A stretch of DNA of 45,239 nt from positions 1 to 45,239 of the forward strand of contig JAODBN010000361.1 of the NCBI GenBank assembly GCA_025463965.1. The letters are read 5' to 3'. Of the stretch, positions 14,023 through 35,748 are shown one piece after another. This DNA comes from Acidimicrobiaceae bacterium. GTDB taxonomy: Bacteria > Actinomycetota > Acidimicrobiia > Acidimicrobiales > Bog-793. A program made the position numbers and the translations under genes. The notes beneath the pieces were generated by a model. The model saw only the letters and a program-made list of their open reading frames with translations. It was not told the origin of the DNA and made no database searches. How positions within the stretch are numbered: position 1 is the first letter of the stretch; each line of letters starts with the position of its first letter.

Positions 14023-14051
14023 TTGATCAAGACAAGCGCTTGTTCTAGGGT
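14023..14051 (+). promoter_or_regulatory. Candidate promoter with embedded LacI-type operator: TTGATC - 17 nt containing ACAAGCGCTTGT - TAGGGT
   Basis: The -35-like TTGATC is at 14023-14028 and the -10-like TAGGGT (TANNNT) at 14046-14051. The 12-bp perfect palindrome at 14032-14043 lies inside the 17-nt spacer, about 50 nt upstream of the SBP start. Confidence 0.6.
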
Positions 14052-14091
14052 GCGTCACGAAGCTCGGTGGTCCAATGAGAAGGGGAGACCC

Positions 14092-15771
14092 GTGGACGAA
14101 TCGTCTGATCGCCTCGACGAGGTGGTCGAGGAGTATGCCGCCAACCGCATCACGCGACGAGAGGCGCTGAAGCGAGCTGGGGTTCTTGGCCTCGGTGCTG
14201 CAACGCTCGGTCCGCTACTCGCCAGGGTGCTGCCGTCTTCTGTGGCAGCCGCGTCGGAGGCTCCAGGCAACTCGGGACAGGCCGCGCCAAAGCATGGTGG
14301 CACGTTTCGGGAAGGCTATGACCGGGACTTCACCCCACCTAATCCAGTGGCGAATAACTGGGCCGATCCGGACTTCAACGCTCTGTTCGAAGCGCTCGTT
14401 ATCCGGAATCCCGAAGGCCAGATCGTCCCGATGCTTGCTGACCACTTCACGAGTGGTCCTCAGGGCTGGACCTTCCACCTCCGGAAGGGACTCAAGTTCC
14501 AGTCGGGGGCGCCGGTGACGCCCGCCGTCGTTGTAGAGGACTTCAACCTCTTTCGCAGTCCGAAGACTGGCCAAAACGGGCCGTTCTGGACGCCGATTTA
14601 TGACGTCGCGGCACAGGGCGAGAACGTGGTCTGCAAGACCCACCACGAGTTCCAGGCCTTCCAGGAGACGGTTGCCACCGAGTACTCGTACATCATGAAC
14701 CCGACGACCTGGAAGGCCCAGGGCTCGAAGTACGGGACGAAGCCGACCGACGGCACGGGGCCCTTCGTCCTCAGTAGCTACGTTCCCGGGCAGCACGTCA
14801 TCGCCAAGAGATGGAACGGCTACCCGGGATCTGTCGTCCCCTTCTTCCGTAACAAGGGCAAGGCGTACCTCGACGCGATCGAGTGGGTGCCCATCACGGA
14901 TGCGACTCAGCGCGCGCCGCAGATTCAGACCGGGCTCGTCGATGCAGTGAAGAACCCGCCGCCGCAGGATGTCGCCACCTTGAAGGCCGACAAGAACCTC
15001 GTGGTTCTCGAATTTCAAGAGCTGTCGAACTTCTTCTTGTCCGTGAACCTCGGCGACACTGCGCTCGGCTTCGACGACCTCCGGGTGCGCCAGGCCATCT
15101 CGCACGCGATCGACCGTGAGGCAATCGTGAAAGCGGTCTTCCTCGGCCACGCGGCCGCCACCTATGGGCCGGCGATGACCCGGTGGAAGTGGTACAACCC
15201 GGCGGTTGAGCAGTACAACAAGTTCGATACGGCGCTTGCGGGCCACCTGCTCGACGAGGCGGGATGGAAGATGGGCTCTAGCGGCGTGAGGACGAAGAAC
15301 GGCAAGCCCCTGGCATTCACGACGTTTAACCTGACCGACACCACCCAGAACCAGGTCATGGCGGCGATCGCGCAAATGCTTGCGAAGGTCGGCGTGCACA
15401 TGACCGTTAAAAGTCTGGCGTCTGCGGCCTTTTATCCTGAGCTCACGCAGAAGACGACGTCGTACGCGTTGAAGTGGCTTTGGTCGAGCCCCATCGATGT
15501 TGTCGCCCTCTTTGTCGCCTTCTATCAGCCCAAGACGGCCGCACTGAACTCCGTATACGACGCGTTCAATGCCTGGCAGACAGCAGGAAACTCGCCGCAG
15601 CTCAAGGCGGCGGCGCTGAGCTACCAGCAGGCCTTTGCGAAGCTTATCCCTTTGATCCCCATTTACACACAGAACACGATTTGGGTTCACAACAAAAACG
15701 TCGTCGGCTGGCAGCCGAACCAGGCGAACCTGTACCCATTTTACAATGATGTCTACCTGCAGAATGCGTGA
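14092..15771 (+). CDS. ABC transporter substrate-binding protein, family 5 (Dpp/Opp/Nik type), Tat-type signal
   Basis: The start was moved from the track's TTG 14023 to GTG 14092, which has an AAGGGGAG RBS. The twin-arginine motif ITRREALKRAGVLGLGAA is followed by an A-rich cleavage region. The family-5 core includes WTFHLRKGLKFQSGAPVT. Confidence 0.9.
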   Translation: MDESSDRLDEVVEEYAANRITRREALKRAGVLGLGAATLGPLLARVLPSSVAAASEAPGNSGQAAPKHGGTFREGYDRDFTPPNPVANNWADPDFNALFEALVIRNPEGQIVPMLADHFTSGPQGWTFHLRKGLKFQSGAPVTPAVVVEDFNLFRSPKTGQNGPFWTPIYDVAAQGENVVCKTHHEFQAFQETVATEYSYIMNPTTWKAQGSKYGTKPTDGTGPFVLSSYVPGQHVIAKRWNGYPGSVVPFFRNKGKAYLDAIEWVPITDATQRAPQIQTGLVDAVKNPPPQDVATLKADKNLVVLEFQELSNFFLSVNLGDTALGFDDLRVRQAISHAIDREAIVKAVFLGHAAATYGPAMTRWKWYNPAVEQYNKFDTALAGHLLDEAGWKMGSSGVRTKNGKPLAFTTFNLTDTTQNQVMAAIAQMLAKVGVHMTVKSLASAAFYPELTQKTTSYALKWLWSSPIDVVALFVAFYQPKTAALNSVYDAFNAWQTAGNSPQLKAAALSYQQAFAKLIPLIPIYTQNTIWVHNKNVVGWQPNQANLYPFYNDVYLQNA

Positions 15772-15779
15772 CCGGAGAA

Positions 15780-15816
15780 GCTGCCCGCTAGGCGGTAACG
15801 GCTTGTCAAGGGCAGC
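15780..15816 (+). other. Intercistronic stem-loop after the SBP gene (GCTGCCC ... GGGCAGC)
   Basis: 7-bp perfect arms at 15780-15786 and 15810-15816 in the 62-nt gap between the SBP and permease genes. Such hairpins often stabilise the SBP message. No U-tract follows. Confidence 0.3.
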
Positions 15817-15833
15817 GATGATGAAGTGAGCAC

Positions 15834-16766
15834 ATGAAGTTCGTTCTAACGCGCCTCTGTTACGCCGTGGTGATCATCGTCCTTGTCTCGATAGTCACCT
15901 TCTACAGCATGCATGCCTCACCCGGCAGCGTCGTGAGCAGTGTCTTCAACCTCGCGACCACGCCACACTCGGTGATCGTCGCGTACGAACGCCGTCACGG
16001 GCTTTTGGACCCGCTGCCGGTCCAGTACTGGCACTTCATGACTGGGCTGTTGAGCGGTAATTTCGGAACGTCGCTCGTTAGCAACTTGTCGGTGAAGACG
16101 ATCGTCGCGAACTCTGCCGGCTATACCGCACTGCTCGCCGGCTCCGCGTTCGTTCTCATCTTTGGCGTCGGCATTCCGATTGGCGTCCTCGCGGCGATCA
16201 AACGCGACTCGTGGTTCGACCGGGGGGTGCGCGCGTTCTCAAGCATTGTCCTTGCGATTCCAAACTTTGTACTCGGCATCATCCTCATCCTCGTCCTAGG
16301 CATTCACCTCCATGTGCTGCCCGTGGCTGGGGCCGGCTCTTTCTCGAACCTCGTCCTGCCGGCGATCGTGCTCGCCGCTGCAGAGTGGTCGCTCACGGTT
16401 CGCGTGACTCGTACGTCGTTTCTCGAGCAGCTCTCGGCTGACTTCACGAGAACGCTGCGCGCCCGGGGCGTCTCCGAGAGGCGGATCCAGTGGCGCCACG
16501 TGCTGCGCAACTCGATGGGCCCGATTATCTCGCTCGGGATAATCGAGGTGCGTAACCTGCTCGGTTACACGCTGATCGTTGAGGTGATCTTCCGCTGGCC
16601 GGGCCTCGGCACCGAGCTGGTGCAGTCCGTGCTCCAGCGGGACTACGACGTGACCGAGGTGCTCTCTCTGCTCCTGGCTGCGGCGGTCGTACTGGCGAGT
16701 GCGTTTGGCGATATCGCCCTCAGCCTGGTCGATCCTCGCGTGCGGGTGACCGGGGAGCATGGATGA
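15834..16766 (+). CDS. ABC transporter permease (DppB/OppB type)
   Basis: 310 aa, multi-pass hydrophobic, N-terminal MKFVLTRLCYAVVIIVLVSIVTF typical of the BPD_transp_1 OppB-like class. It sits in the operon between the SBP and the second permease. Confidence 0.9.
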   Translation: MKFVLTRLCYAVVIIVLVSIVTFYSMHASPGSVVSSVFNLATTPHSVIVAYERRHGLLDPLPVQYWHFMTGLLSGNFGTSLVSNLSVKTIVANSAGYTALLAGSAFVLIFGVGIPIGVLAAIKRDSWFDRGVRAFSSIVLAIPNFVLGIILILVLGIHLHVLPVAGAGSFSNLVLPAIVLAAAEWSLTVRVTRTSFLEQLSADFTRTLRARGVSERRIQWRHVLRNSMGPIISLGIIEVRNLLGYTLIVEVIFRWPGLGTELVQSVLQRDYDVTEVLSLLLAAAVVLASAFGDIALSLVDPRVRVTGEHG

Positions 16767-17668
16767 CGATGACCGCCCCGCAGATCGCTGCCCAGGGCAC
16801 CGGCCTGAAGGCGCGACCGAGCCGCTTTCTCATCTTGTTCCAGCCGCACAACCTTGTGTGGACGATCGGTGGAGTCATCATTATTGCGGCGGGGATCCTC
16901 GGGATCGTCCTGCAGCTCGTGCCTTCGTGGCGGCACCTCTACCTCACCCAGGATCTGACGGCGACATTTCAGGCGCCTCTCTCCACCGGCCACGTGCTCG
17001 GAACGGACAACCTCGGTCGAGATCTCCTCTGGCAGCTCATTGCCGGCCTTGGCATCTCGTTGATGATCGGGATTGGCGTGACTGTGCTCTCGCTTGTTCT
17101 CGGGCTCACGGTCGGGATCCTCGGCGCCTACTTCGGTCGTACGGCCGACGCGGTGAGCAACGTCATCGTCGACGTAACGTGGGCCTTCCCGGCGATCCTC
17201 CTTGCCGTCCTCCTCGCTGGCGCCATCGGCCCGAGCGTGACGACGGTCGTTCTCGCCCTCGCGCTGACGACCTGGCCTGGCTATGCCCGTATCGTCCGCG
17301 GCGAGGTGCTGTCCCTGCGCGAGCGGGACTTCGTGAACGCGGCTCGAGTGCTCGGCGTCCCGAAGCTCGTGATCAGCGTCCGGCACTTCGTCGTGAACCT
17401 TATGCCCATCACGATTGTGATCGCCGTGTACTACGTCGCGACGGCGATCATCGGTGAGGCGGGACTCTCGTTCCTCGGCCTCGGCGTGCAAGCGCCGATG
17501 CCGAGCCTGGGGCTCATGCTCTCGGTGGGCCAGCAGTACCTGAACGTCAGCTGGTGGCCCGTCGTTCTCTCCGGCGCGCTCTTGGCGCTCGTCGTGCTGT
17601 TCCTAAATGCGTTCGGGGACTTCCTACGGGGTCGCCTCGATCCCCACGGGCGGGTGCCGAGGCGATGA
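16763..17668 (+). CDS. ABC transporter permease (DppC/OppC type)
   Basis: 301 aa, hydrophobic, with HVLGTDNLGRDLLWQL typical of the OppC N-terminus. ATGA overlap with the upstream gene. Confidence 0.9.
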   Translation: MTMTAPQIAAQGTGLKARPSRFLILFQPHNLVWTIGGVIIIAAGILGIVLQLVPSWRHLYLTQDLTATFQAPLSTGHVLGTDNLGRDLLWQLIAGLGISLMIGIGVTVLSLVLGLTVGILGAYFGRTADAVSNVIVDVTWAFPAILLAVLLAGAIGPSVTTVVLALALTTWPGYARIVRGEVLSLRERDFVNAARVLGVPKLVISVRHFVVNLMPITIVIAVYYVATAIIGEAGLSFLGLGVQAPMPSLGLMLSVGQQYLNVSWWPVVLSGALLALVVLFLNAFGDFLRGRLDPHGRVPRR

Positions 17669-18690
17669 GGGGACCGGAACTCCTCGTGAAAGCGTCGGTG
17701 AGTCCGGCGGCGGTGCCCGCCAGCCGTCCTGCGCTCGCACTCCTCGACTTGTCCATCTCCCAGCGCCTGCGGCGGACGGAGAAGAGGCTCGTGACCCACG
17801 TCGATCTCGAGGTCGGGCAGGGTGAGATCGTCGGCCTCGTCGGCGAAAGTGGTTCGGGGAAGTCGCTAACGGCTCTTGCGTGCATGGGCCTCTTGCCTTC
17901 TGGCCTCGCGGTGACCGGCGGGGACGTGCACCTCGATGGCGCTTCGCTGCTCGGACTTGCGCCGAAGGCGTTCCGGGCGCTGCGCGGCAACGCGATCAGC
18001 ATGATCTTCCAAGACCCGCTCTCGAGTCTCGACCCGTGCGCCCGCATTGGCGCGCAGATAATCGAGACGATTCGCGCCCATAAAGACGTCAGCGCTTCCC
18101 AGGCGAAGCGGGATGCCATCGAGCTGCTAGACCGCGTCGGGATCCCGAGAGCGGCCCAACGCATGCGGGCGTATCCGCACGAGTTCTCGGGCGGAATGCG
18201 CCAGCGGGTCATGATCGCGGCGGCGCTCGTCCTCAAGCCACGCGTCCTGCTTGCGGATGAGCCGACAACGGCGCTGGACGTCACTACGCAGGCGGGCATC
18301 GTCGAGCTCGTGCGCGAACTCTGCCGTGAGCTTCAGATGAGCGTCGTCTGGATCTCCCACGACCTTGCGCTCGTCAGCGAGCTCGCCGATCGAGTGGCGG
18401 TGATGTACGCCGGAGAGATAGTCGAGGTCGCGGACTCCAAAGTTCTCTTCCGAGTGTCTCGTCATCCTTACACGAAGGGTCTTGTTGCCAGCGGGAGCAT
18501 CCGTCCCTACGGCGAGCGCTTCAGTTACATACCCGGCAGTATTGCCGAGCCGGGAACGTGGCCGACAGGGTGTCGATTTGCTCCTCGCTGCGAGCGCGTC
18601 CGCGAGGAGTGCGTCGGAGAGCATCCCGACTTTAGGAGTGGGACGACAACGGTCCGCTGCGTCAATCCCATCGAGTACGAGGCGGAATGA
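17665..18690 (+). CDS. ABC transporter ATP-binding protein (DppD/OppD type)
   Basis: The start was set at ATG 17665 (ATGA overlap); the track's extension from 17554 overlaps the permease. Motifs: Walker A GESGSGKS, signature FSGGMRQRV, Walker B LLADEPTTALD. The C-terminal oligopeptide-ATPase-type tail contains Cys residues. Confidence 0.9.
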   Translation: MRGPELLVKASVSPAAVPASRPALALLDLSISQRLRRTEKRLVTHVDLEVGQGEIVGLVGESGSGKSLTALACMGLLPSGLAVTGGDVHLDGASLLGLAPKAFRALRGNAISMIFQDPLSSLDPCARIGAQIIETIRAHKDVSASQAKRDAIELLDRVGIPRAAQRMRAYPHEFSGGMRQRVMIAAALVLKPRVLLADEPTTALDVTTQAGIVELVRELCRELQMSVVWISHDLALVSELADRVAVMYAGEIVEVADSKVLFRVSRHPYTKGLVASGSIRPYGERFSYIPGSIAEPGTWPTGCRFAPRCERVREECVGEHPDFRSGTTTVRCVNPIEYEAE

Positions 18691-19460
18691 CGGTGTCAAT
18701 CGTCCAGCTACTTGACGCGAGAAAGGTCTTCCGCGGACGGCGCGGCGCGCCGGATCACGTCGCTGTCGACGACGTCTCCTTCGAGATGAGCAGCGGTGAG
18801 ACGCTCGGCATTGTCGGAGAGAGCGGGAGCGGCAAGACGACCATCGCGCGGCTCGTCCTCTCACTGGCGCGCCCGACGTCCGGACACGTGTATGTGGGCG
18901 GCATCGACGTCGGCGCCGCCTCCGGCGCTGAGCGCAAGCGCCTACCGCGGATTGTCCAGGCGGTATTCCAGGATCCCTTCGCATCACTCGATCCACGGAT
19001 GACGATTGGCGCCAGCATCTGCCAAGGAGCAAAGCGTGCCTTCGGTGCGCAGGCGGCCCAAGCGGCGCTCGGTGATCTCCTCGACCATGTTGGACTGCCT
19101 CAGCGCTACCGTGACCTGTATCCGCACGAGCTCTCAGGCGGACAGCTCCAGCGCGTCGCGATCGCCCGCGCACTTGCGATGAAGCCGGATGTCCTCGTGG
19201 CCGACGAGCCAGTGAGCGCGCTCGATGTGTCGATGCAGGGACAGGTTCTCAATCTACTCATCGACCTTCGCCATGAGTTCTCCATCTCGTGCCTGTTCAT
19301 CTCGCACGACCTCGGGATCGTCCAGCAGTTCTGCGAGCGCGTGCTCGTGATGGAGAGCGGAAAGGTCGTCGAAGAGGGCGTACCCGGCGATATCTTCCGG
19401 TCGCCGTCGCATCCCTACACTCAGAGCCTCATCGAGGCCATCCCAAAGGTGCCCGCATGA
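18687..19460 (+). CDS. ABC transporter ATP-binding protein (DppF/OppF type)
   Basis: Walker A GESGSGKTT, signature LSGGQLQRVAIARAL, Walker B LVADEPVSALD. ATGA overlap. Confidence 0.9.
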   Translation: MTVSIVQLLDARKVFRGRRGAPDHVAVDDVSFEMSSGETLGIVGESGSGKTTIARLVLSLARPTSGHVYVGGIDVGAASGAERKRLPRIVQAVFQDPFASLDPRMTIGASICQGAKRAFGAQAAQAALGDLLDHVGLPQRYRDLYPHELSGGQLQRVAIARALAMKPDVLVADEPVSALDVSMQGQVLNLLIDLRHEFSISCLFISHDLGIVQQFCERVLVMESGKVVEEGVPGDIFRSPSHPYTQSLIEAIPKVPA

Positions 19461-20119
19461 CCGTGTCCGAGATCGGCTTCCCCGCCCCGGAGGCGGTGAG
19501 CTTCGGTGAGGGGGCCGACCTCGCCGGAGTTGCCTGGAGATGGCCGTCTGCCGATATCTCCTTGCTCTTCCTTCACGACGTCGGGACCGATCTCGACTCG
19601 CTTCGCTGGTTGTGCGCTCCGCTCGTAGCAGCGGGGATCACCTGCCTCAGCCTCGACCTCGCCGGCCACGGTCTTAGCGCCGGTGACTTCAAGGCCGACG
19701 GTGAACGGGCAGTTCACACCGCTTGGACTACGTTCACGGCCGGTTTGACAGGCGTCGCCGGCGTGGTCGCCGAGGGAGCGGCTGTCGACCTCATGTTTGC
19801 CACGGACTTTGCGAAAGCGCCAGTGTCGGCCGTCTGTCTCAGCCCGCGTCAGCGCGCCGGTGGGGGCGTACCCGCTCCGAGCTGGCGACTGGTCCCGAAA
19901 CTCGTGATCCTCGAGTCTGAGGGCACCGGTGATTCTGCCTATGCCGACACCATCATCGAGTCGACGAACGCGTGGTGCCTCCGCGCCGATCTCAGTCCGT
20001 CGTGCACAGAGGGAGACCGCTCCCACGATTACCAGGTGGCGAGCCTGACGCTCAAGTTCCTGCTCGAACAGGCGGCCTTCGAACTCGCCGGCCGGACTCA
20101 GCCCGGGGAGGCTCTGTGA
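19457..20119 (+). CDS. Alpha/beta-hydrolase-fold-like protein without a recognisable GXSXG nucleophile
   Basis: The start was set at ATG 19457 (ATGA overlap). LLFLHDVGTDLDSL...LSLDLAGHGLSAGDF resembles the beta3/oxyanion region of alpha/beta hydrolases. The position expected for the nucleophile elbow reads VVAEGAAV, with no Ser. Confidence 0.4.
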   Translation: MTVSEIGFPAPEAVSFGEGADLAGVAWRWPSADISLLFLHDVGTDLDSLRWLCAPLVAAGITCLSLDLAGHGLSAGDFKADGERAVHTAWTTFTAGLTGVAGVVAEGAAVDLMFATDFAKAPVSAVCLSPRQRAGGGVPAPSWRLVPKLVILESEGTGDSAYADTIIESTNAWCLRADLSPSCTEGDRSHDYQVASLTLKFLLEQAAFELAGRTQPGEAL

Positions 20120-21078
20120 GCACGCTCGAAGCACCGGCGCACCTACTCGCCCTCTATGAGCAGATGTACACGATCCGTGCATTCGAGGAGCAGGTGATGG
20201 AGCTGCTCCGAATCGGCGAGATCACGGGGTCGACCCACCTCTGCATAGGCCAGGAGGCCGTCCCGGTCGGCGCCTCTGCGGTGCTCCAAGCCTCAGACGC
20301 AGTCATCGCGACCTACCGTGGCCACGGCTGGGCGATCGCGAGAGGCGTTCCGCTCGCGGCGCTCTTCGCCGAGCTGATGGGCCGCGCCTCGGTTCTCTGC
20401 GACGGCCGGGGCGGCTCCGCCTATTTCATGGCCCCCGATCACGGCTTCCTTGGAGAGAATTCGATTGTCGGTGCTGGTGTCCCGATGGCGCTCGGCGCCG
20501 CTCTCGCCCGGCGCTTCCAGCGGCGAGACGCGATCGGGCTGGTGTCGATCGGCGACGGCGCGATGAATCAGGGCGCCGTGCACGAGTCGCTGAACATGGC
20601 GGCCGTCCTCGCCGTCCCGCTCGTCGTCGTCGTCGAGAACAACGGCTACGTCGAAATGACGCCGTCACAGGCGCTCACCGCCAAGCCGGCGCACGTTCGG
20701 GCAGCAGCCGCCTATGGCATTGAGTCGGTGCTCGTCGACGGTAACGATCCCGACGCGGTGGGCGCGGCCGTGGAGCGGGCGCGTGCGACCGCCATCGGGT
20801 CTCAGCGGCCGTTCCTCATCGAGGCCGAGACGCACCGCCTCGTCGGCCACTACTCGGGCGACCTCCAGGCCTATCGGCCGCCTGGGGAGCTCGACGCGGC
20901 GCGCCTGCGCGAGCCGCTCGTGCGTCTCGCAGCCACCATCAGCGACGATGAGGCCACCGATGCCGTGCGCGCACGAGTCGCCCGGTTGCTCGCGGAGGAA
21001 CTCGACGTGGCACGTCGCGTGCCACCGGCAAACCCAGAGCGAGCCCTCGTCGGTCTCTACGCAGGACCGGAACGATGA
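20116..21078 (+). CDS. Thiamine-diphosphate-dependent 2-oxoacid/acetoin dehydrogenase E1 component, alpha subunit
   Basis: The start was set at GTG 20116 (GTGA overlap, GGGGAGG RBS). MYTIRAFEE...HLCIGQEA...YRGHG, and the TPP motif SIGDGAMNQGAVHESLNMAAV...VVVVENNGY. Confidence 0.85.
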   Translation: MSTLEAPAHLLALYEQMYTIRAFEEQVMELLRIGEITGSTHLCIGQEAVPVGASAVLQASDAVIATYRGHGWAIARGVPLAALFAELMGRASVLCDGRGGSAYFMAPDHGFLGENSIVGAGVPMALGAALARRFQRRDAIGLVSIGDGAMNQGAVHESLNMAAVLAVPLVVVVENNGYVEMTPSQALTAKPAHVRAAAAYGIESVLVDGNDPDAVGAAVERARATAIGSQRPFLIEAETHRLVGHYSGDLQAYRPPGELDAARLREPLVRLAATISDDEATDAVRARVARLLAEELDVARRVPPANPERALVGLYAGPER

Positions 21079-22073
21079 GCGTGGTGGAGATCTCCTACAT
21101 CCGTGCCGTCAACGAGGCGCTGGCGTGGGCGCTCGCGCGCTATCCCGAATCGATCATCTTCGGGGAGGACGTCGCGCTGCCAAACGGGCCGTTCGGGGCG
21201 ACGAAGGGACTCCGCGCCCGCTTCGATGAGCGCGTCTTCGATACTCCGATCTCGGAGTCCGCGATGGTCGGTACCGCTCTTGGCGCAGCCGTCTCCGGTC
21301 TACGTCCGGTCGTCGAGATCATGTACGGCGACTTCCTCCTTGTCGCGATGGACCAGATCGTGAACCAGGTGGCAAACGCGCGCTACGTCTCGAACGGGGC
21401 GCTCGTCCCGCGACTCACTATCCGGACCCAGCAAGGCGCGACTCCCGGCTCATGCGCTCAGCACAGCCAGTCACTCGAGGCGCTCTTCGCACACATCCCC
21501 GGCCTGCGTGTCGGACTAGCGTCGAACGCCGTCGACGCTTACGAGATGCTTCGCGCTGCGATCGCCTCGGACGACCCGGTGTTGATCTTCGAGAGTCGCC
21601 GCCTCTATGCGCAAAAGGCGGCAGTCGCCCTTGATGGCCCGCTCGAGGCCGTCAGCGGGTCGCGCGTCGTTGCCGAGGGAGGCGACGTCACCGTCGTCTC
21701 GTGGGGAGCCGCAGTTTCTGACGTGCTGACGGCGCGCACCGCTCTCGATGAGCGCGGTGTGCACGCGACGGTTGTCGACCTGCGCTGGCTCTCTCCGCTC
21801 GATCTCAATCCCGTGTTCGACTCGGTGGCGCGAACGGGTCGGCTAGCGGTCGTCCACGAGGCAAATACGACTGGCGGCTTCGGCGGTGAGATCGTCGCTC
21901 GCGTCGTCGAAGAAATGGGTTCCCAGCTCACTGCGGCGCCGGTCCGCATCGGTGCGCGCGACTGCCGAATGCCGGCAGCGCCCAGCCTGTCCGCAGCCCT
22001 CCTCCCCACCCCAGACCGGATCGCCGCCGAGCTCATGACGCTCGTCGCACCGACCGGCGCGCCGGCCAGCTGA
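21075..22073 (+). CDS. 2-oxoacid/acetoin dehydrogenase E1 component, beta subunit (transketolase-like)
   Basis: FDTPISESAMVGTALGAAVSGLRPVVEIMYGDFLLVAMDQIVNQ and the C-terminal transketolase_C-like part (VVDLRWLSPLD). ATGA overlap. Confidence 0.85.
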   Translation: MSVVEISYIRAVNEALAWALARYPESIIFGEDVALPNGPFGATKGLRARFDERVFDTPISESAMVGTALGAAVSGLRPVVEIMYGDFLLVAMDQIVNQVANARYVSNGALVPRLTIRTQQGATPGSCAQHSQSLEALFAHIPGLRVGLASNAVDAYEMLRAAIASDDPVLIFESRRLYAQKAAVALDGPLEAVSGSRVVAEGGDVTVVSWGAAVSDVLTARTALDERGVHATVVDLRWLSPLDLNPVFDSVARTGRLAVVHEANTTGGFGGEIVARVVEEMGSQLTAAPVRIGARDCRMPAAPSLSAALLPTPDRIAAELMTLVAPTGAPAS

Positions 22074-28387: not shown

Positions 28388-28488
28388 GACTCGTTGGAGC
28401 ACGCGCGGGTTTGGGAGCAATGGTCATTACGGCGTGCTCGTCGCGGCGAACAGCCGTGCCTGCCGCACGGGAACACAAGGAGGGAACG

Positions 28489-29952
28489 ATGCGCGAGATC
28501 TTCGAGTACCGGTTCACGAAGCTCGACCCCGTTGGCGGGGACCACATCGACCCGCCCGGCGTTGCGATCTACGAGGGGCTCCTCAACAAGGGCCCGAGCG
28601 AACAGCCTCTGCCTGGGCTGGCGGTGGCGTGGTCGCCGAGTGAGGATGGCCTCGTCTGGCGTCTGCGGCTCCGTCCGGAAGCGCGGTTCCACTCGGGCGA
28701 TCCGTGCGACGCGCCGGCGGTCGTCGCCGCGCTCGAACGCTGTCGCTGGGGCGATGGCCGGACTCATCAGCTCTGGTACTGGGACCCGGTCGACACGGTC
28801 CGAGCGCTCGACGAGGGGACGATCGAGATCCGGCTGCACTATCCCTGGCTTCGACTCCCGACGCTGTTGTGGGGAACACACACTGCGATCGCCAATGACC
28901 GGCGTCGGGAAGCACTCGGCGCCCGCTACGGCATCGAGTTGGCAGATGGGACTGGGCCCTATCGTCTCGTTTCCTATGAGCCGGACGAGGTTGTGGGCGA
29001 ACTCGTCCACGGGGCGGGCGAGACGCGGCCGCGCGTCGTCAGCTGGATGTCCGAGAGCGATGACGACGCCCGGTGCGCGGCCCTAGGGCGCGACGACGTC
29101 GATGTTGTCCGAGCGGTGCGGCCGGAGTGGATCCAGCACGAGAGCGCCGAGCGCTGGCGCTACGTCGAGCAGGACGAGATCTCCCAGTTCTACCTAGCGC
29201 TCAGATTCGACGGAGCCTTCGGCTTTGACGACGTCGAGCTGCGGCGCGCCGTCGATGCCTTTGTAGACCGTCCTGCGCTCGTCGCGGCGGCGTTCGGCGG
29301 GCTCGGCAACGGCCGCCGCTCGCCAGTTCCGGTCGGGGACGTCTTCGCCTCGAACTTCGACCCCGCAACGGTACCGCCGCTGTCCATCGCCCAAGCGGAG
29401 GCGGTACTCGACGCCCATGGTCTGGTGCGGGGGCCAGACGGGGTGCGCATGAAGGACGGCGTTCCGCTGCGCCTGCCCTGCGTTACGCAGGACGCCCCGG
29501 CCTTTCGCCGGCTCGTCGGCGAGCTCGGCCGTCAGATCGCCGCGGCCGGCATCGTCCTCGAGTTCGAGTACTACACGCCGTTCGAAGACTTCTACCGGGC
29601 GTGCGCGAAGCGGCCGGCAGCCTTTGTGTCGAAGTGGCTTTGGCAGGACGCTATCGAGGCCGTCATGGGCTTCTCGCGGTCGTCGTGCACCGGAGACGCC
29701 GGGTGCAACTGGCAGGGCTCGATCGTGCCGGCCGTCGACGCCGCCTACGACCGGTTCCTCCAGGCGTCGACGCTTGAAGAGCTCGGCGAGCGGAGCCGCG
29801 AGGTCCAGGAGAGCTTCATGCGCGAACTGCCGTACATCCCACTCTGCTCGCCGGCGGAGACATACGCGATCTCGCCGCGAGTGCACGGGTTCGTCCCGGT
29901 GCCAGGGACGCTCTACCCTCTCTATGACAAGGTCCTGCTCGCCGATGAATGA
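28489..29952 (+). CDS. Family-5 solute-binding-protein homologue lacking any signal peptide (predicted cytoplasmic)
   Basis: ATG 28489 has a strong AAGGAGG RBS. The mature-type SBP_bac_5 core begins at residue about 5 (FTKLDPV...IYEGLLNK...PGLAVAWSPSEDGLVWRLRLRPEARFHSGDP). No hydrophobic or Tat N-terminus is present. The in-frame upstream extension (from 28411) is too short and uncharged to be a signal. Confidence 0.75.
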   Translation: MREIFEYRFTKLDPVGGDHIDPPGVAIYEGLLNKGPSEQPLPGLAVAWSPSEDGLVWRLRLRPEARFHSGDPCDAPAVVAALERCRWGDGRTHQLWYWDPVDTVRALDEGTIEIRLHYPWLRLPTLLWGTHTAIANDRRREALGARYGIELADGTGPYRLVSYEPDEVVGELVHGAGETRPRVVSWMSESDDDARCAALGRDDVDVVRAVRPEWIQHESAERWRYVEQDEISQFYLALRFDGAFGFDDVELRRAVDAFVDRPALVAAAFGGLGNGRRSPVPVGDVFASNFDPATVPPLSIAQAEAVLDAHGLVRGPDGVRMKDGVPLRLPCVTQDAPAFRRLVGELGRQIAAAGIVLEFEYYTPFEDFYRACAKRPAAFVSKWLWQDAIEAVMGFSRSSCTGDAGCNWQGSIVPAVDAAYDRFLQASTLEELGERSREVQESFMRELPYIPLCSPAETYAISPRVHGFVPVPGTLYPLYDKVLLADE

Positions 29953-30256
29953 GCCGACGGTGTATTGCGTCATCCTTTACCGCAAGGACGGTGTCTCCCG
30001 GGAGCAGTTCCTCGAGGCGTGGCTCGGCGAGCACCGCCGTCTCATTGGCGATCTCTCCGGCCTGACGGACGTGCGTCTGCTTCCCGTCGCCGAGCCCGCC
30101 GATGGCGGCCCCGATGGCGTGGGGCTGCTCCGTTTCGCCTCGGCAGCGCAGCTCACCGCCGCGCTCCAGTCCGAGCCCGCGCTCACGCTGCGACGCCACA
30201 CGGCGACTTTCTCCAAGTCGGACGCGGCGGTCCGGCTGCTGTTGACCGAGCCGTGA
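29945..30256 (+). CDS. EthD-domain protein (dimeric alpha/beta-barrel family)
   Basis: 103 aa. VYCVILYRKDGVSREQFLEAWLGEHRRLIGDLSGLTDVRLLPV fits the EthD pattern. The start overlaps the SBP-like stop by 8 nt, and the stop overlaps the next gene's GTG. Confidence 0.65.
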   Translation: MNEPTVYCVILYRKDGVSREQFLEAWLGEHRRLIGDLSGLTDVRLLPVAEPADGGPDGVGLLRFASAAQLTAALQSEPALTLRRHTATFSKSDAAVRLLLTEP

Positions 30257-32487
30257 CGACGCGGGAATTAGGGGCCGGTCCACCGATCGGCTACTTCGAC
30301 CGCTGGACGGCCCGACCTGGCGAGACGATAGAGCTGAAGGTGAGCAGCGAGATTGGCTTCGACGTGTCGATCATCCGCGTCTTACAGGCCGACAACAGCG
30401 CCTTGGCGCCCGGTCGGCGGGAGTACGTCGAGGAGTGGTGGCCAAGCTGTCGGTTTGGGGCGGCGGTGCAGAAGGTGGCGCCGGGCTCGTGCGTTCTCAC
30501 CGACCTGCTTCCGGCTCTGCAGACTGCCGAGAGATATGCGGTGGAGCTGATGTTCCGCCCGGGCGTGTTCGATGGCGGTGAGGCTCAAGTCGTCGCCGCT
30601 CTCCTCGCCGCCGACGGGCGCGCCAGTATGGAGCTCGCGCTCGACGGCGACGGCGGCCCCTACCTCGGGATCGGTTGCGGGCTGCGGCGACGGCGCGTCC
30701 GCGCCGGGCCGGCGACCGTTCTGCAAGTGGGCCGCTGGTACGAGGCGCGCCTCAGTGTCGACCTCGAGACTCGCCTGGCGCAGCTCGTGGTGGAGAGTGT
30801 GCTCGACGCGCCGAGCGGGCGCCAGCTCCTGGATGCAGAACTCGAGCTCGACGAGACCGACGTCGTGGCGCTGCGGGGGGATGCCCGCCCAGAACGCCTA
30901 ATGCTCGGTGCTGGCGGCGACTCCGACGTCGGCGAGCCCGGGGAGAACCCGCCGCGCGTCGGCCACTTTTCAGGGAAAGTAGAGGCGCCGACAGTCTCGG
31001 GGAGCGCTTCCTTGGCCGCGTTCGGCGGAGCGTTCAGCTACTCGTGGCAGCTCGGACCCGAGGTGCACAACGCGGCGGTCCTCGACGACCGGGGACAGGG
31101 CATCGTTGCCCATCTGCTCAATGCGCCGATGTCAGCAGTGACAGGTCACGCCTACGACGGGAGCGTCGTCTGTTACGCGCAGGCTCCGGACATGTATCGT
31201 GCCCTGGCACTCCATCGCGACGACCTTGAAGACGCCGGCTGGTCGACGACCGCCACGCTCACCTTGCCCGACGGACTGTCGTCCGGCGTGTATGCGGCCA
31301 AGTTGCAGAGCACGGCGGGATCTCGATACGTGCCCTTCTTCGTCGCCCCGCGGTCGGGCGGCGAGCGCCCGGCGATCGCCGTCGTGCTCCCTACCTTTAC
31401 CTATCTCGCGTACGCGAATGAGCACGTGCGCGAGTCGCTCCCCCACTTTGGGGAGACCCCGCAGCATCCGTCGCCTCAGGACCTCGAGATATCGGTGCAC
31501 CGCGACTTCGGGCTTTCATTGTACGACCACCACGATGACGGCACAGGGGTCTGCTTCTCGTCATGCCGTCGGCCGGTGCTCAACCTCGATCCGACCTACC
31601 GCTTCTGGCTGTTCGACGGACCGGTCCACCTCGGCGAGGACCTCTACCTGCTCGATTGGCTGGAGCGGGAGGGCTACGCCTTCGATGTCCTCACCGACCA
31701 TCTCTTGCACGGGGAGGGACAGCAAGCGCTCGCCGGGTACCGCGTCGTGCTGACGGGGAGTCACCCCGAGTACGTCAGCGAGCAGCTGATCGATGCCTTC
31801 GAAGCCCATGTCGAGGGCGGCGGCCGGCTGATGTACCTCGGTGGCAACGGGTTTTACTGGGTCACTTCCGTCCACCCCGAGCGGCCGCATCTGATCGAGG
31901 TGCGTCGGGGGAACGCCGGTGGCCGCGCCTGGGAGAGTGACCCGGGGGAGACCCACCATGCGACGACCGGGGAGCAAGGGGGCCTCTGGCGCCACCGCGG
32001 CCGGCCACCGAACCGGCTGCTCGGCGTCGGCTTCAGCGCGCAGGGTGCTGACGACGATGCGCCCGGATATCGACGGGTCTCGAGTGAGCCCCGCTGGAGC
32101 TTCGTTTTCGAGGGCCTGACCGACGACCAGGCGATCGGCGAATCGGGACTCCTTCTCGGCGGTGCGGCCGGCAACGAGGTGGATCGCGCCGACCCCCGCT
32201 GCGGCACACCGCCTGAGACGGTCGTGCTCGCGACCTCCACGGGCCATAGCGACGCATACCAGCTCGCCCACGAGGATCTCGCCTTCACCGCGCCGGACCA
32301 GGGTGGTACCAAGCAGCCGCTCGTCCGAGCGGATCTTACGATGACGCCCTACGTATCGGGTGGGTGCGTCTTTTCAGTGGGGGCGATCACCTGGCTCGGA
32401 GCGCTCGCCGCGTCCTCCTATGACAACGACGTCGCCCGGCTGACGGCGAACGTTCTCCGGCGCTTTCTCTCGCCCGCGCCTCTCTAA
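30253..32487 (+). CDS. N,N-dimethylformamidase beta (large) subunit-like protein, paralogue 1
   Basis: The start was set at GTG 30253 (GTGA overlap); the track's extension from 29965 overlaps the EthD gene. Blocks recalled from DmfA2-type proteins: IGYFDRWTARPGETIELKVS, PTFTYLAYANE, LTGSHPEY, GGRLMYLGGNGFYWV, HPERPHLIEVRR, LVRADLTM, ITWLGAL, NDVARLTANVLRRFL. Confidence 0.75.
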   Translation: MTTRELGAGPPIGYFDRWTARPGETIELKVSSEIGFDVSIIRVLQADNSALAPGRREYVEEWWPSCRFGAAVQKVAPGSCVLTDLLPALQTAERYAVELMFRPGVFDGGEAQVVAALLAADGRASMELALDGDGGPYLGIGCGLRRRRVRAGPATVLQVGRWYEARLSVDLETRLAQLVVESVLDAPSGRQLLDAELELDETDVVALRGDARPERLMLGAGGDSDVGEPGENPPRVGHFSGKVEAPTVSGSASLAAFGGAFSYSWQLGPEVHNAAVLDDRGQGIVAHLLNAPMSAVTGHAYDGSVVCYAQAPDMYRALALHRDDLEDAGWSTTATLTLPDGLSSGVYAAKLQSTAGSRYVPFFVAPRSGGERPAIAVVLPTFTYLAYANEHVRESLPHFGETPQHPSPQDLEISVHRDFGLSLYDHHDDGTGVCFSSCRRPVLNLDPTYRFWLFDGPVHLGEDLYLLDWLEREGYAFDVLTDHLLHGEGQQALAGYRVVLTGSHPEYVSEQLIDAFEAHVEGGGRLMYLGGNGFYWVTSVHPERPHLIEVRRGNAGGRAWESDPGETHHATTGEQGGLWRHRGRPPNRLLGVGFSAQGADDDAPGYRRVSSEPRWSFVFEGLTDDQAIGESGLLLGGAAGNEVDRADPRCGTPPETVVLATSTGHSDAYQLAHEDLAFTAPDQGGTKQPLVRADLTMTPYVSGGCVFSVGAITWLGALAASSYDNDVARLTANVLRRFLSPAPL

Positions 32488-34592
32488 GCGAGCATACGCT
32501 GGAGGACGTTCGTGCAGACTCGGGCGAGGTCGTTCTTCCCGTCCTCCACTGGGAGACATCCGCTCGCCGTGACCGACCCGAGGCTGAATACAATGCCGCC
32601 GGCCGGGGTGTGCCGGATCGTCATGTCAGCTCGCGTCTCGACGTCGGGGGCGCGCCCGGGCCCGCTCTCGAAGGTCCGAAAGAAAAAGCCTCCCGTCGGC
32701 ATCGCGCTCGCGAGCACAGTTGTTCCGACCGGCGCAAGGTCGGGGGTATAACGGTCGAATTCGAAGGCGACGGCGCCGCCCATGTTGAGTCCACATTCGC
32801 CGATTACGGCAGACGTGACGCCGTCAAACACCCACGCGAAGTCAGGGCCATACGAGGCGTCGGTGCGTTGGTAGCCGATGCCGGTATCCCAGCCGAAGCC
32901 CGCGAACCCGACCGAGACGATGGAGTCTGGCGGCCGCCCGCTCTGGGCCCACGTGCCGCCCCATTGCGGCTCGAAGACGTGAGCTACCTCGTCGCGCTCC
33001 GCGCTCCACGTCTGCGATCCACGCCAGCGCCGGACTTCCATGAGGTGTGGGCGCTCGTGATCGATGGAGGTCACCCAGTACAGGCCGTTGCCACCAAGAT
33101 AGATCAGGCTTCCTCCTGCATCGAGGTGGTGCTCGACGGCGTCGAGCATGGCGGCAGTCCAGTACTCGGGGTGCGCCGACAGCACGAGGACGCGTGCGCC
33201 CCTCAGTGCGCGGGCACCGTTCTCGTGAAGTACCCCGTCGGTGACGACGCCAAAGTCGATTCCACTCCGGTCGAGCCAGTAGTTGGCGTAGAGATCGGCC
33301 ATCAAAAGGTGCGTGGCCGTAGCCTCATCGCCCGGCGCTCCGGTCCCGGTGAAGGCGTCGACACTGTCGACCTCCAGGCGCGCGCCCGGCTCTAGGGTCG
33401 GCGAGGGCTTCAGCCGCGTCGTGACGTACACCGGAGAGCCATCGTTATGGAGCGCGTAGTGCGAGAGGCCGGGGTAGCGGTCCGCTTCCCGACCGAGGTT
33501 CGCGTACGCCTGCCAGGTGAATGTGGGCGCGAGCAGAAGAACAAGTGGGTTGACCTCTGGGGTCACGATGAAGGGGAGCTCGGCATCGCCATCGCTGCCA
33601 GAGACGTGCAGGCTGTAAAAGCCAGATCGCGCCGACTCCGGGACTGCGATCCGGTGGGTCCGCGGCCAGCGGCAGCTCTCGAGGTCGTCGCGATGCAGGT
33701 GCACGGTTGCGTAGGGCGCTGCCGTCATCGGGGGCTCGGTTGTGCCGTCGAGCGGCAATGGCCCCGACACGCCGAGTGCGGGCGCGTTAATGAGCGTGCC
33801 GTGGTGATTATTTGCCGACTGGTCCACGACTTTCCAGAGACTGTCGGCGCTCCCGAAGAGCCAGCTCCCGAGGATCGCGCGGCGCCTGCTCGTCCCCTCT
33901 ATGCCCCAGTTCATGAGCTCCATGAGACCAATCGCGTCAGGGATCTCAGCGAGGAGGAACGGAGCGTGGAGCTTGCCGTCAAACTGGCCGCGCGCCCATC
34001 CCTCGGACTCGGTGTGCCCGCCGAGCACGAGGGTCCCGTCCGATGTCGGCGGCGGCAGCGGCGCGATCGTGCGGACGAGCTCGTAGGGACCACCTGTGCG
34101 GCCGAGCTGTCCCCAGGCGAGCTTGACCAGTCCTGCCGACGCGTCGAGGCCGAGCCCCAGAAAGGCCCACTGGCGTTCGTACAGCTCGCGTGGGGACTCG
34201 AGAATCGTTTCCTCGCCGAGAACAAATCCAGGTCGCCCATTGCGGATCGCGAGCCGCGCCGCGCCGGACTTCGTCATCCAGGAGGCAACCACCGACGTCT
34301 CACGGAGCACAGTTGGCCAGATCCACGTCGCGAAGGTGAGCGGTCGGCCGTCCGTTGTGAGGGCGCCAGGAATTATCGCGCACGAGCCGGCTACAACAGT
34401 CTGTTCCTCGACGGGCTGCAGCTGCTCGAGGGGCCAGGAAGTCTCCTCAAATAGAGCACCGGGACCAAGATTTGGATCCGCGTGGACGAGACGGCGGACG
34501 TGCACATGCGGAGCGGCGTCTTGACCCGAAACGCGGGCGGCGAGGCTCGTCCCTGGCAGGACTTCGAAAGCATCAAGGTAGCCCCGCGCCAC
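32484..34592 (-). CDS. N,N-dimethylformamidase beta (large) subunit-like protein, paralogue 2
   Basis: 702 aa with a GTG start and no RBS (see the promoter feature). It has the same block order as paralogue 1: RGYLDAFEVLPGTSL, APTFTWQAYAN, LSAHPEYWT, GGSLIYLGGNGLYWV, HERPHLMEVRR, TRADMTI, NDLARVCTNVLQRML. Its stop codon overlaps that of paralogue 1. Confidence 0.75.
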   Translation of the reverse strand: MARGYLDAFEVLPGTSLAARVSGQDAAPHVHVRRLVHADPNLGPGALFEETSWPLEQLQPVEEQTVVAGSCAIIPGALTTDGRPLTFATWIWPTVLRETSVVASWMTKSGAARLAIRNGRPGFVLGEETILESPRELYERQWAFLGLGLDASAGLVKLAWGQLGRTGGPYELVRTIAPLPPPTSDGTLVLGGHTESEGWARGQFDGKLHAPFLLAEIPDAIGLMELMNWGIEGTSRRRAILGSWLFGSADSLWKVVDQSANNHHGTLINAPALGVSGPLPLDGTTEPPMTAAPYATVHLHRDDLESCRWPRTHRIAVPESARSGFYSLHVSGSDGDAELPFIVTPEVNPLVLLLAPTFTWQAYANLGREADRYPGLSHYALHNDGSPVYVTTRLKPSPTLEPGARLEVDSVDAFTGTGAPGDEATATHLLMADLYANYWLDRSGIDFGVVTDGVLHENGARALRGARVLVLSAHPEYWTAAMLDAVEHHLDAGGSLIYLGGNGLYWVTSIDHERPHLMEVRRWRGSQTWSAERDEVAHVFEPQWGGTWAQSGRPPDSIVSVGFAGFGWDTGIGYQRTDASYGPDFAWVFDGVTSAVIGECGLNMGGAVAFEFDRYTPDLAPVGTTVLASAMPTGGFFFRTFESGPGRAPDVETRADMTIRHTPAGGIVFSLGSVTASGCLPVEDGKNDLARVCTNVLQRMLA

Positions 34593-34598
34593 AGGGCC

Positions 34599-34634
34599 AC
34601 AGTAACATGGGCTTTCCGTTGGACAAGCGCTTGA
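34599..34634 (-). promoter_or_regulatory. Candidate leaderless promoter of DMFase-like paralogue 2, overlapped by the third LacI-type palindrome (divergent lacI side)
   Basis: The minus strand reads CAAGCGCTTGTCC - 16 nt - TACTGT - 6 nt - GTG. The -35-like TTGTCC is at 34626-34621 and the -10-like TACTGT at 34604-34599. The palindrome core is at 34624-34633 (ACAAGCGCTTGA at 34623-34634). The GTG start at 34592 lies where transcription would begin. Confidence 0.55.
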
Positions 34635-34677
34635 TCATCGGCCTTCGAGGCCCCAATTCAGGAAGACGGTTCTCGCA

Positions 34678-35748
34678 GTGCTCGATCATGTCGTCGCGAA
34701 CGCCAAGCGGCCTTCGGCCCGTGTCGGACAGGGGAGTTCTCTCCTCGCCGTCGCGGGCGAGGCGCGGGTTCACCCGTCGACGGTGTCGCGGATCCTGCGA
34801 GACGATCCGGCCGTTCGCGTCCGCCCCGCCACGCGCCAGCGTGTCATTGCAGCGGCCGCTGCACTCGGCTATGTCCCGAATGCAAACGCCCGCGGATTGG
34901 CGCTCCGCCGGACGACGACGCTCGGCTTGATCATCCCAAGCACTGCGAACATCGTCTACGAACAGATCATCAAGGGCGCGGAGTCAGCGGCACGGGCGGC
35001 CGGATACGTTCTCGTACTTGCTGAGTCAGCCGACGTAGGGCAGGTTGACTCCGCCCACCGTGAGCTGATTCTCGGCGGGCGCGTCGACGGGCTGCTCATC
35101 GCGAGCGGAACGTTGCGAGAGTCGCTGCCTCGAGCAGTCTTGAATGGCGTGAATAACACGATCATCTTGAACCGTCGGATCCGCGGCTCGGTTCCCAGCA
35201 TCATTGAGGACGACGAGCGGGGGATGGCCCGCGGCGTCGAGCATCTCGTCGCTCTTGGGCACACTCGTATCGCCTGCCTTGCCGGTCCAGAGGAGGTGGA
35301 CACGGCGACCCGCCGTTTGTCCGGCTTCAAGGAGGCGTTGCGAGCCGCCGGTTTACCCGTCTCCCGTGGCTACATCCAGCGAGCAAGTTTCGATGAGGCA
35401 GGCGGCTACGAAGCCATGCTTCGTCTGCTTCAACTGGAACGCCGACCGACCGCGGTCGCGGCGAGCAGTATCGTGGCGGCGATCGGTGCCCTTGCAGCCT
35501 GTCACGCGACTGGGGTTTCAGTTCCCGGTGAACTCTCGATGATCGCGTTTCACGATGCCACGATCGCTCAGTACCTCACACCGTCGCTGTCCACCATCTG
35601 GATGCCGCTCTTTGAGCTCGGCGAGATGGCGACACGACAACTGCTTGAAGTGATCGACGGGCGAGACATCCCTTCCGTTCAGCGTCTACAGGATCCTGAG
35701 CCGCGCGTCATCCCCCGCGCCTCTACGGCCCCTCCGCCCGCTGATTAA
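34678..35748 (+). CDS. LacI/GalR-family transcriptional regulator
   Basis: N-terminal HTH LLAVAGEARVHPSTVSRILRDD followed by a periplasmic-binding-protein-like sugar-binding domain (GLIIPS..., DGLLIAS, VALGHTRIACLAGP, PGELSMIAFHD). It is divergent from paralogue 2 across an 85-nt region that carries the palindrome. Confidence 0.9.
   Translation: MLDHVVANAKRPSARVGQGSSLLAVAGEARVHPSTVSRILRDDPAVRVRPATRQRVIAAAAALGYVPNANARGLALRRTTTLGLIIPSTANIVYEQIIKGAESAARAAGYVLVLAESADVGQVDSAHRELILGGRVDGLLIASGTLRESLPRAVLNGVNNTIILNRRIRGSVPSIIEDDERGMARGVEHLVALGHTRIACLAGPEEVDTATRRLSGFKEALRAAGLPVSRGYIQRASFDEAGGYEAMLRLLQLERRPTAVAASSIVAAIGALAACHATGVSVPGELSMIAFHDATIAQYLTPSLSTIWMPLFELGEMATRQLLEVIDGRDIPSVQRLQDPEPRVIPRASTAPPPAD

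Follow-up and report, generated by a model that had tools for sequence, protein, structure and literature searches.

A survey of 1,303 LacI-family regulators showed that their operators are even palindromes (16 to 22 nt) with a central CG, that >75% of the sites lie 30 to 140 nt upstream of a start codon and <1% in coding regions, that 72% of the regulators are autoregulated, and that, of the groups to which a pathway has been assigned, 96% govern the use of carbohydrates (PMC4052901). Here, we analyze a palindrome, CAAGCGCTTG, in a 45,239-bp stretch of DNA (hereafter, the window), which is one entire contig of a metagenome-assembled genome labelled Acidimicrobiaceae bacterium; the copy counts given for the window cover this contig. 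Three exact copies of the palindrome are spread over a block of 19 genes (by refined gene models; the first-pass annotation of this DNA had counted 20) that ends with a LacI-family gene. We propose that the block is a local autoregulated LacI-family regulon, whose repressor would be encoded at 34678-35748 and whose predicted operators are two of the three copies, O1 and O3. On the strength of sequence comparisons, we consider this reading highly probable.

A look-alike of the palindrome is known from another family of regulators. KstR2, a TetR-family repressor of mycobacteria and Rhodococcus, has as its operator AnCAAGnnCTTGnT, a near-identical 14-bp palindrome that includes CAAGCGCTTG and occurs at three promoter regions per genome; the published KstR2 sites, among them CCAAGCGCTTGC and AACAAGCGCTTGGT, have a variable center and a fixed CAAG (PMC3068626). 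A literature search on the 10-mer and on the 12-mers that extend it returned this motif as the only look-alike, and in the literature searched we found no published account of the motif-regulator pair described here, nor of LacI-family control of clusters related to N,N-dimethylformamidase (DMFase).

Results

A pattern search of the window returned three exact copies of CAAGCGCTTG and no more, at 14033-14042, 24910-24919, and 34624-34633, and one-mismatch copies only at 31723 and 35904, both as the first-pass annotation had claimed. The exhaustive search that it had recommended, with 0 to 2 mismatches, thus yielded 3 exact, 2 one-mismatch, and 34 two-mismatch copies. Dinucleotide-preserving shuffles of the window contained a mean of 0.02 exact copies, and three or more were obtained in 0 of 100 shuffles; the initial expectation of ~0.05 copies per 45 kb was right as to rarity and is revised to this lower figure. 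For two-mismatch copies, there was no clear excess (25.5 expected, with 8 of 100 shuffles getting to 34). The sites and the promoter-like elements around them are as follows.

14023-14028, plus strand: -35-like hexamer TTGATC of the importer promoter P1
14028-14047, unstranded: predicted operator O1, 20-mer CAAGACAAGCGCTTGTTCTA, core at 14033-14042 (matrix score and conservation)
14046-14051, plus strand: -10-like hexamer TAGGGT (TAnnnT type) of P1
24905-24924, unstranded: site 2, CGCAGCAAGCGCTTGGCGTC, core at 24910-24919 (exact 10-bp core, nonconsensus flanks)
34599-34626, minus strand: promoter-like elements of DMF2, namely, -35-like TTGTCC (34626-34621), a 16-nt spacer, and -10-like TACTGT (34604-34599)
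34619-34638, unstranded: predicted operator O3, TTGGACAAGCGCTTGATCAT, core at 34624-34633 (matrix score and conservation)

Conservation at orthologous loci, a check that had been advised at the outset, was evaluated in 72 loci totalling 872 kb (designated by L numbers): 63 around relatives of the LacI-family protein, drawn from GTDB genomes and JGI metagenomes, 6 around orthologues of SBP1, the solute-binding protein of the importer, and 3 around homologues of the aldolase. The palindrome is kept at the positions of sites 1 and 3. A symmetrised 20-nt weight matrix was built from 19 sites of other genomes, the window being excluded (training scores, 19.3 to 28.5); the consensus of these external sites is CTAAACAAGCGCTTGTTTAG, and the central CG is invariant in 19/19. 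The consensus of the palindrome family is about gAACAAGCGCTTGTTc, and its members lie upstream of lacI orthologues or of importer SBP1 orthologues in the related loci. On the external matrix, O1 scores 27.4 and O3 scores 24.2. The one-mismatch copies at 31723-31732 (inside DMF1) and 35904-35913 (in a gene-convergence region past lacI) both score <10 and are best read as chance matches.

The 12-mer of the window, ACAAGCGCTTGT, has 27 matches with at most one mismatch in the 872 kb of related loci, versus 0 to 4 in shuffles. Twenty-three of these 27 fall in the 250 nt that precede the extrapolated starts of lacI or SBP1, zones that together amount to 1.2% of the sequence, and the remaining four are upstream of lacI or within the gap between a DMFase-like gene and SBP1. 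Orthologous sites are positioned 23 to 124 nt upstream of starts. As for exact 10-mers in the related loci, 15/15 score at least 22, and each lies in a gap that precedes lacI, SBP1, or a DMFase-like gene.

Orthologous lacI loci, with a LacI protein at least 60% identical, number 22, and a site lies upstream of lacI in 17 of them, with variants that include gaACAAGCGTTTGTtg, agACAAACGCTTGTtc, and agGCAAGCGCTTGTtc. In the closest relative, L001 (81% identical), the site is ggACAAGCGCTTGAtcat, and its distance to lacI is the same as in the window. In genomes with a LacI protein ~50% identical (L029-L032, L005, L030), lacI and the importer operon diverge, with the palindrome in the gap between them; L005 has a second site, ahead of an E1-SDR-MBL-amidohydrolase operon. 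The most distant LacI clade (~39% identity, lake metagenomes, L034-L062) has the palindrome TCAAACGCTTGA, and its recognition helix reads SLVSRIVN in place of STVSRVLR. This pairing of TCAAACGCTTGA with SLVSRIVN is a single instance of co-variation between motif and protein; the recognition helix STVSR(I/V)LR is common to the clades with the (A/G)CAA(G/A)CG motif. In the same distant clade, genes for E1 beta, E1 alpha, and an SDR are linked to that of the regulator, and TCAAACGCTTGA lies ~1.2 kb past the SDR gene (e.g., L038, 15805-15824).

At site 1, the extended sequence ACAAGCGCTTGT fills the 17-nt spacer between TTGATC and TAGGGT, and the center of O1 is ~54 nt upstream of the GTG of SBP1. 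This placement, already proposed in the first reading of the window, is borne out by the six close SBP1 loci (L064-L069), all of which have a site about 50 nt before SBP1 (score, 21.5 to 28.5) and share one architecture: TTGAC(N), three bases, ACAAGCG(C/T)TTGT(T/C)C, then TAnnnT. Five more distant loci also have a site upstream of SBP1, which is exactly ACAAGCGCTTGT in L029, L031, and L032 and a two-mismatch variant in L005 and L030. Some relatives have tandem operators 74 to 213 nt apart in one gap (L067, 9729-9748 and 9942-9961; L068, 882-901 and 956-975; L060, 83-102 and 260-279); unlike these, the window has a single operator per regulatory gap. A terminator-like hairpin with a T-run at 13887-13904, ~120 nt upstream of the importer promoter, was the sole terminator found by the scans around the three sites and marks the 5' boundary of the regulon. 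In L069, the opposite strand carries a phage-type integrase gene (455-1771) ~600 nt upstream of the SBP1 promoter, a hint that the cluster of that genome may be on or beside a mobile element.

Site 3, with the extended sequence ACAAGCGCTTGA, is inside the 85-bp gap between the GTG of DMF2 (34592) and the GTG of lacI (34678), and the center of O3 is ~49 nt before the latter and ~36 nt before the former. The -35-like TTGTCC of DMF2 overlaps it on the minus strand, and the -10-like TACTGT ends 6 nt ahead of the GTG at 34592; the DMF2 mRNA is likely leaderless. An alignment of the DMF2/lacI gaps revealed three kept islands, namely, the DMF2 start region, a minus-strand TAnnnT a few bases upstream (at the aligned position in 8 orthologous loci), and the operator 14 to 20 nt beyond. 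These islands agree with the early description of site 3 as overlapping the -35 region of DMF2. Both O1 (~54 nt) and O3 (~49 and ~36 nt) are within the 30- to 140-nt range of the family, and site 2 (~150 nt, within an open reading frame [ORF]) is outside it.

In the structures of PurR, LacI, and CcpA, a leucine of the hinge helix inserts at the central CpG step of the operator. The regulator of the window has an N-terminal helix-turn-helix (HTH) domain (PF00356, 41.7 bits for a cut-off of 27, residues 25 to 68) that aligns with that of CcpA and a C-terminal periplasmic-binding-protein-like effector domain (PF13377, E = 1.3e-37; PF00532, E = 8e-27). It aligns over its full length with the CcpA, RbsR, and PurR structures, including the hinge NANARGLAL; the hinge GYVPNANARGLAL aligns with GYRPNAVARGLAS of CcpA, and A71, R72, and L74 are invariant across 27 orthologues. 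With LacI structures, the alignment spans residues 23 to 338 of the query and 7 to 320 of LacI and leaves the C-terminal tetramerisation helix of LacI outside the matched part, no dedicated test having been run. Phylogenetic footprinting bears out the earlier prediction that the regulator at 34678 is the cognate factor of the palindrome. O1 and O3 are well supported as operators. The sites, with their statistics, conservation, and placement, and the family of the regulator are observed; that the protein binds there, in which sense it regulates, how the operon is structured, and that an effector acts on it are inferred from them.

Several observations weigh against the regulon as we propose it. 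Five of the 22 lacI loci do not have a full upstream site. Three of these exceptions are trivial: in L003 and L004, lacI lies directly behind DMF1 with no gap, and in L010, the upstream DNA is cut off. In the other two, L002 has a half-site alone and L023 has no site. Neither P1 nor the DMF2 promoter passed a strict sigma-70 consensus scan, and a search for lacI's own promoter identified none. Since such scans found no promoter at any of the three sites, our promoter assignments rest on TAnnnT-type hexamers and conservation. Finally, site 2 scores 9.7 on the external matrix versus 24 to 27 for O1 and O3, and its position is atypical, with its center ~150 nt upstream of the aldolase ATG (25064).

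The gene content of the block was established from Pfam and NCBIfam matches and refined gene models, and domain scans found no second regulator gene in the block beyond lacI. The importer genes, whose synteny is kept, are the following.

14092-19460, plus strand: Dpp/Opp-type ABC importer (Pfam SBP_bac_5, BPD_transp_1, ABC_tran, and oligo_HPY)
14092-15771, plus strand: SBP1, family-5 solute-binding protein with a twin-arginine-like leader and a GTG start
15834-16766 and 16763-17668, plus strand: the two importer permeases
17665-18690 and 18687-19460, plus strand: the two importer ATPases

They are followed by a stretch of enzyme genes, whose order recurs in L001-L009, L015, L018, L024, and L064-L068.

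19457-24944, plus strand: enzyme gene stretch, from the 220-aa protein to the amidohydrolase (Pfam and NCBIfam matches)
19457-20119, plus strand: 220-aa protein with no Pfam or NCBIfam family
about 20116-21078, plus strand: E1 alpha
21075-22073, plus strand: E1 beta
22073-22927, plus strand: SDR
22924-23667, plus strand: MBL-fold hydrolase
23664-24944, plus strand: amidohydrolase (stop codon, 24942-24944)

The 220-aa protein between the second ATPase and E1 alpha is kept in all orthologous loci, one of which gave a weak alpha/beta-hydrolase match for it. E1 alpha and E1 beta are thiamine-enzyme subunits of the pyruvate/acetoin-dehydrogenase type. Since the cluster contains no E2 or E3 genes, here and in all relatives, the pair suggests a stand-alone thiamine-dependent C-C cleaving enzyme.

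The rest of the block consists of a module of four genes, a second SBP homologue, two DMFase-like genes, and lacI.

25064-25921, plus strand: class II ketose-bisphosphate aldolase, ATG at 25064 (Pfam)
25918-26733, plus strand: HAD hydrolase (Pfam)
26730-27395, plus strand: DhaL/Dak2 (Pfam)
27392-28387, plus strand: DhaK/Dak1 (Pfam)
28489-29952, plus strand: SBP2, SBP_bac_5 homologue (Pfam)
29965-32487, plus strand: DMF1, DMFase-large-subunit homologue (Pfam)
32484-34592, minus strand: DMF2, second DMFase-like gene, GTG at 34592, divergent from lacI (Pfam DMFA2_C)
34678-35748, plus strand: lacI, LacI-family regulator of 356 aa, GTG at 34678 (Pfam LacI HTH, Peripla_BP_1, and Peripla_BP_3)

Unlike SBP1, SBP2 (N terminus, MREIFEYRF...) has no signal peptide; its gene is kept beside DMFase-like genes (also in L001, around 3763), and the protein, a binding-protein homologue, may be cytoplasmic and do something other than transport. 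DMF1 matches the solved structure of the N,N-dimethylformamidase large subunit (6lvb, E = 3e-116). The divergent arrangement of DMF2 and lacI recurs in L001, L006, L007, L009, L015-L018, L021, and L022. Beyond the block, a separate glycolate-type unit at 37068-44331 encodes malate synthase G, FAD and Fe-S oxidase subunits that resemble GlcD/E/F, and a regulator of the IclR family, the only one outside the block in the window; it contains no LacI-type site.

Site 2 is the copy whose function is in doubt. It had been described as preceding the 119-nt gap in front of the aldolase ATG; the gap exists (24945-25063), but site 2 lies inside the amidohydrolase ORF, in its nonconserved last 12 codons, 27 nt before the stop, and is not intergenic. 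The surrounding DNA bears the marks of a rearrangement. Nucleotide homology between the window and L001 ends at 24908, the left edge of site 2, and the DNA past the DhaK stop (~28400-28488) aligns with the amidohydrolase 3' end, the spacer, and the SBP2 start of L001. The degenerate second amidohydrolase 3' end after the module is visible only in gapped alignments (a gapless repeat search missed it), and such a duplication is therefore suggestive. Between the amidohydrolase and SBP2 genes, the 3.5-kb aldolase-HAD-DhaL-DhaK module (about 24909-28400) is missing from L001, L009, L015, L018, L024, L064, L065, L067, and L068. From this usual order and the junction alignments, we conclude that the module is an insertion in the lineage of the window, with site 2 at its 5' edge. 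Its GC content at third codon positions is 0.70 to 0.77, versus 0.78 to 0.85 for neighboring genes.

Homologues of the aldolase occur elsewhere in related clusters. In L002, L007, L018, L019, and L022, one is found downstream of lacI behind a cytochrome P450 gene, with the full module in L007 and L022. Such a P450 gene directly follows lacI in L002 (11177-12373), L022 (1660-2877), L006, L007, L015, L016, L018, L019, and L026; it has its own operator-like site ahead in four loci (L002, L015, L016, and L026) and none elsewhere. A P450 remnant as the source of site 2 gave no tblastn signal in the window. The closest aldolase homologues (80 to 82% identical, L070-L072) are behind a GAF-GerE regulator; they have no such site, and their upstream regions share no homology with that of the window's aldolase.

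Given these data, site 2 may be a nonfunctional relic or a chance match, in which case the regulon would have two operators only and the aldolase module would be expressed by read-through from P1; we give this reading an even chance. It is in line with the weak flanks of site 2 (G/G at the two positions where nearly every other site has A/T), with its atypical position, with its location at the recombination junction where L001 homology stops, and with the relatives, in which the amidohydrolase gene is followed straight by SBP2 with no site. It also fits the amidohydrolase/aldolase junction, where promoter and terminator scans found neither; since there is no terminator, the module could be co-regulated by read-through even if site 2 were inert. 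What the relic reading explains poorly is that an exact 10-mer is expected just ~0.02 times per 45 kb and that core-only copies of the 10-mer like site 2 number zero in the 872 kb of related loci.

The same rarity is the main argument for the reading in which all three copies are working operators, which we rate slightly below even. Here, site 2 would overlap the -35 element of an internal promoter (TTGGCG, 17 nt, TATAGG, 24917-24945) and give the module a repressible promoter of its own. A third exact 10-mer has a chance of ~0.02 per window, the 872 kb of related DNA contain no 10-mer outside regulatory gaps, and site 2 stands right at the 5' boundary of the module, ahead of the 119-nt gap. 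Furthermore, in L002, a bona fide site separates lacI from the P450 gene preceding the aldolase (in L007, L018, L019, and L022, however, the P450 gene follows lacI without one), and the presumably functional L030 site, GCAAGCGCTTGC, is also devoid of the flanking A/T on both sides. Against it, the score of site 2 falls within the background, as matrix matches inside genes at 23107, 26790, 31718, and 38185 score 9.3 to 13.6 and shuffled windows give 1.9 matches of at least 8 each; site 2 is in an ORF, and its distance to the start codon, ~150 nt, exceeds the usual 30 to 140 nt; it has no orthologous counterpart, the closest aldolase homologues being without a site; and no promoter or terminator was detected there. 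Whether site 2 is a weak or auxiliary operator or a relic is thus about evenly balanced, and in both cases P1 probably drives transcription of the module as well. Of the original proposal that the regulator acts on all three units, the LacI-type operator, the cognate regulator, and the single regulon are supported by the footprinting; site 2 as a third operator is supported less well than the other two, given its score of 9.7, its place in a coding tail, and its lack of a counterpart.

Two further readings would remove the LacI-family protein from the picture. In the first, which we judge very improbable, the palindrome would be bound by a regulator of another family, such as a KstR2-like TetR repressor, and the proximity of lacI would be coincidental. 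The published sites CCAAGCGCTTGC and AACAAGCGCTTGGT are what recommends it. However, a scan of 39 ORFs of the window detected no TetR domain; lacI orthologues are accompanied by the motif in more than 25 loci, which belong to different genomes; its central CG is invariant and the flanking position G/A variable, the opposite of KstR2; and the motif co-varies with the LacI recognition helix. With no TetR gene and with a fixed center next to a varying G/A, we rejected the KstR2-type operator as an identity for the palindrome.

In the second, which is more improbable still and effectively refuted by the comparative data, the copies would be nonregulatory (a dispersed repeat, a hairpin/terminator element, or a compositional artefact). 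Nothing was seen in its favor, and it is considered because palindromes are able to fold into hairpins. The copies sit in promoter gaps rather than at gene 3' ends, their flanks are not repeated, their spacing to the -35/-10 elements and to start codons is kept across genomes, and a loopless 10- to 12-bp stem cannot be an intrinsic terminator. Rfam gave no RNA family match in the window.

Discussion

We propose that the block probably consists of one long operon and a divergent pair of genes. In the LacI-family regulon outlined here, a dimer of the regulator would bind an even palindrome of about gAACAAGCGCTTGTTc, whose central CG is invariant. O1 takes up the spacer that separates the -35 hexamer of P1 from its -10 hexamer, so that RNA polymerase would be excluded by a bound repressor. 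P1 probably drives a single long transcript of 17 genes, from SBP1 to DMF1 (14092-32487); the gaps within this stretch are all short, and no terminator was predicted at the single internal junction scanned (amidohydrolase/aldolase). Because O3 overlaps the -35 region of DMF2 and lies ~49 nt before lacI, a repressor bound there would block the DMF2 promoter and also dampen the expression of lacI, providing autoregulation. An effector, presumably the imported compound or an intermediate derived from it, would release the repressor. In this scheme, the most that site 2 could be is a weak auxiliary operator, acting on an internal promoter that may exist ahead of the inserted module.

The block had also been suggested to act on one substrate. 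For the conserved core of ~13 genes, this is a plausible idea; the case is weaker for the aldolase/Dha-kinase module, whose closest homologues have another regulator in front of them. The importer and the three amide hydrolases are reminiscent of systems for peptides, opines, and N-acyl amino acids, and the aldolase, the Dha kinase, the SDR, and E1 point to a ketose or polyol moiety, which gives a lead as to the nature of the substrate. We tentatively suggest, while regarding it as rather unlikely, that the regulon defines a catabolic pathway not described so far, common among Actinobacteria of soil and peat, for a natural amide-linked compound, possibly an opine- or Amadori-type conjugate of a sugar or polyol with an amine. 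The DMFase-family enzymes, the cytoplasmic SBP homologue, and the E2-less E1 would act on a compound brought in by the peptide/opine-type importer, and the LacI-family repressor would sense an intermediate. If true, this would provide a natural role for the DMFase family and a rare case of a LacI regulon outside ordinary sugar use.

Independently of the substrate, the operator model gAACAAGCGCTTGTTc in a conserved -35/-10 spacer offers a cheap handle on a conserved, uncharacterised cluster of uncultured Acidimicrobiia and related Actinobacteria. The predicted regulon delimits a gene set composed of the importer, the E1-type thiamine enzyme, the SDR, the MBL hydrolase, the amidohydrolase, the cytoplasmic SBP homologue, and two DMFase-like amidases, with the P450 gene and the aldolase/Dha-kinase module as variable accessories of the cluster. 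Placed in a reporter host, the repressor-operator pair could serve in screens for the inducer and, hence, for the natural substrate of the DMFase-family enzymes.

Compared with described systems, the locus is closest to the local LacI/GalR regulons (Ravcheev et al. 2014, PMC4052901; CcpA, PurR, and RbsR as models). It has the same HTH, leucine hinge, and periplasmic-binding-protein-like effector domain, the same even palindrome with a central CG and an AA.CG.TT core, and the same placement of an operator ahead of the regulator gene, and it likewise comprises fewer than 20 genes, an ABC importer included. Unlike in typical LacI/GalR regulons, the genes do not form a recognizable sugar pathway and instead encode a family-5 peptide/opine-type importer, two DMFase-family amidases, an amidohydrolase, an E1 with no E2 or E3, and an MBL hydrolase; the host, an uncultured Acidimicrobiaceae bacterium, also sets it apart from the usual cases.

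A second comparison is with the E. coli lac operon, which likewise combines a strong promoter-proximal operator with a weaker copy in a coding region; site 2 in the amidohydrolase ORF recalls lac O2 in lacZ. The auxiliary lac operators work by looping of the LacI tetramer, whereas the alignment of the present regulator to LacI leaves the tetramerisation helix uncovered. Since site 2 is also ~10 kb from both O1 and O3, looping is unlikely for it. With respect to the KstR2 operator, the motif of the window differs by the fixed CG at its center and by its co-occurrence with lacI rather than tetR. The proposed switch is of an ordinary, textbook bacterial kind, here newly located in an uncultured actinobacterium from soil.

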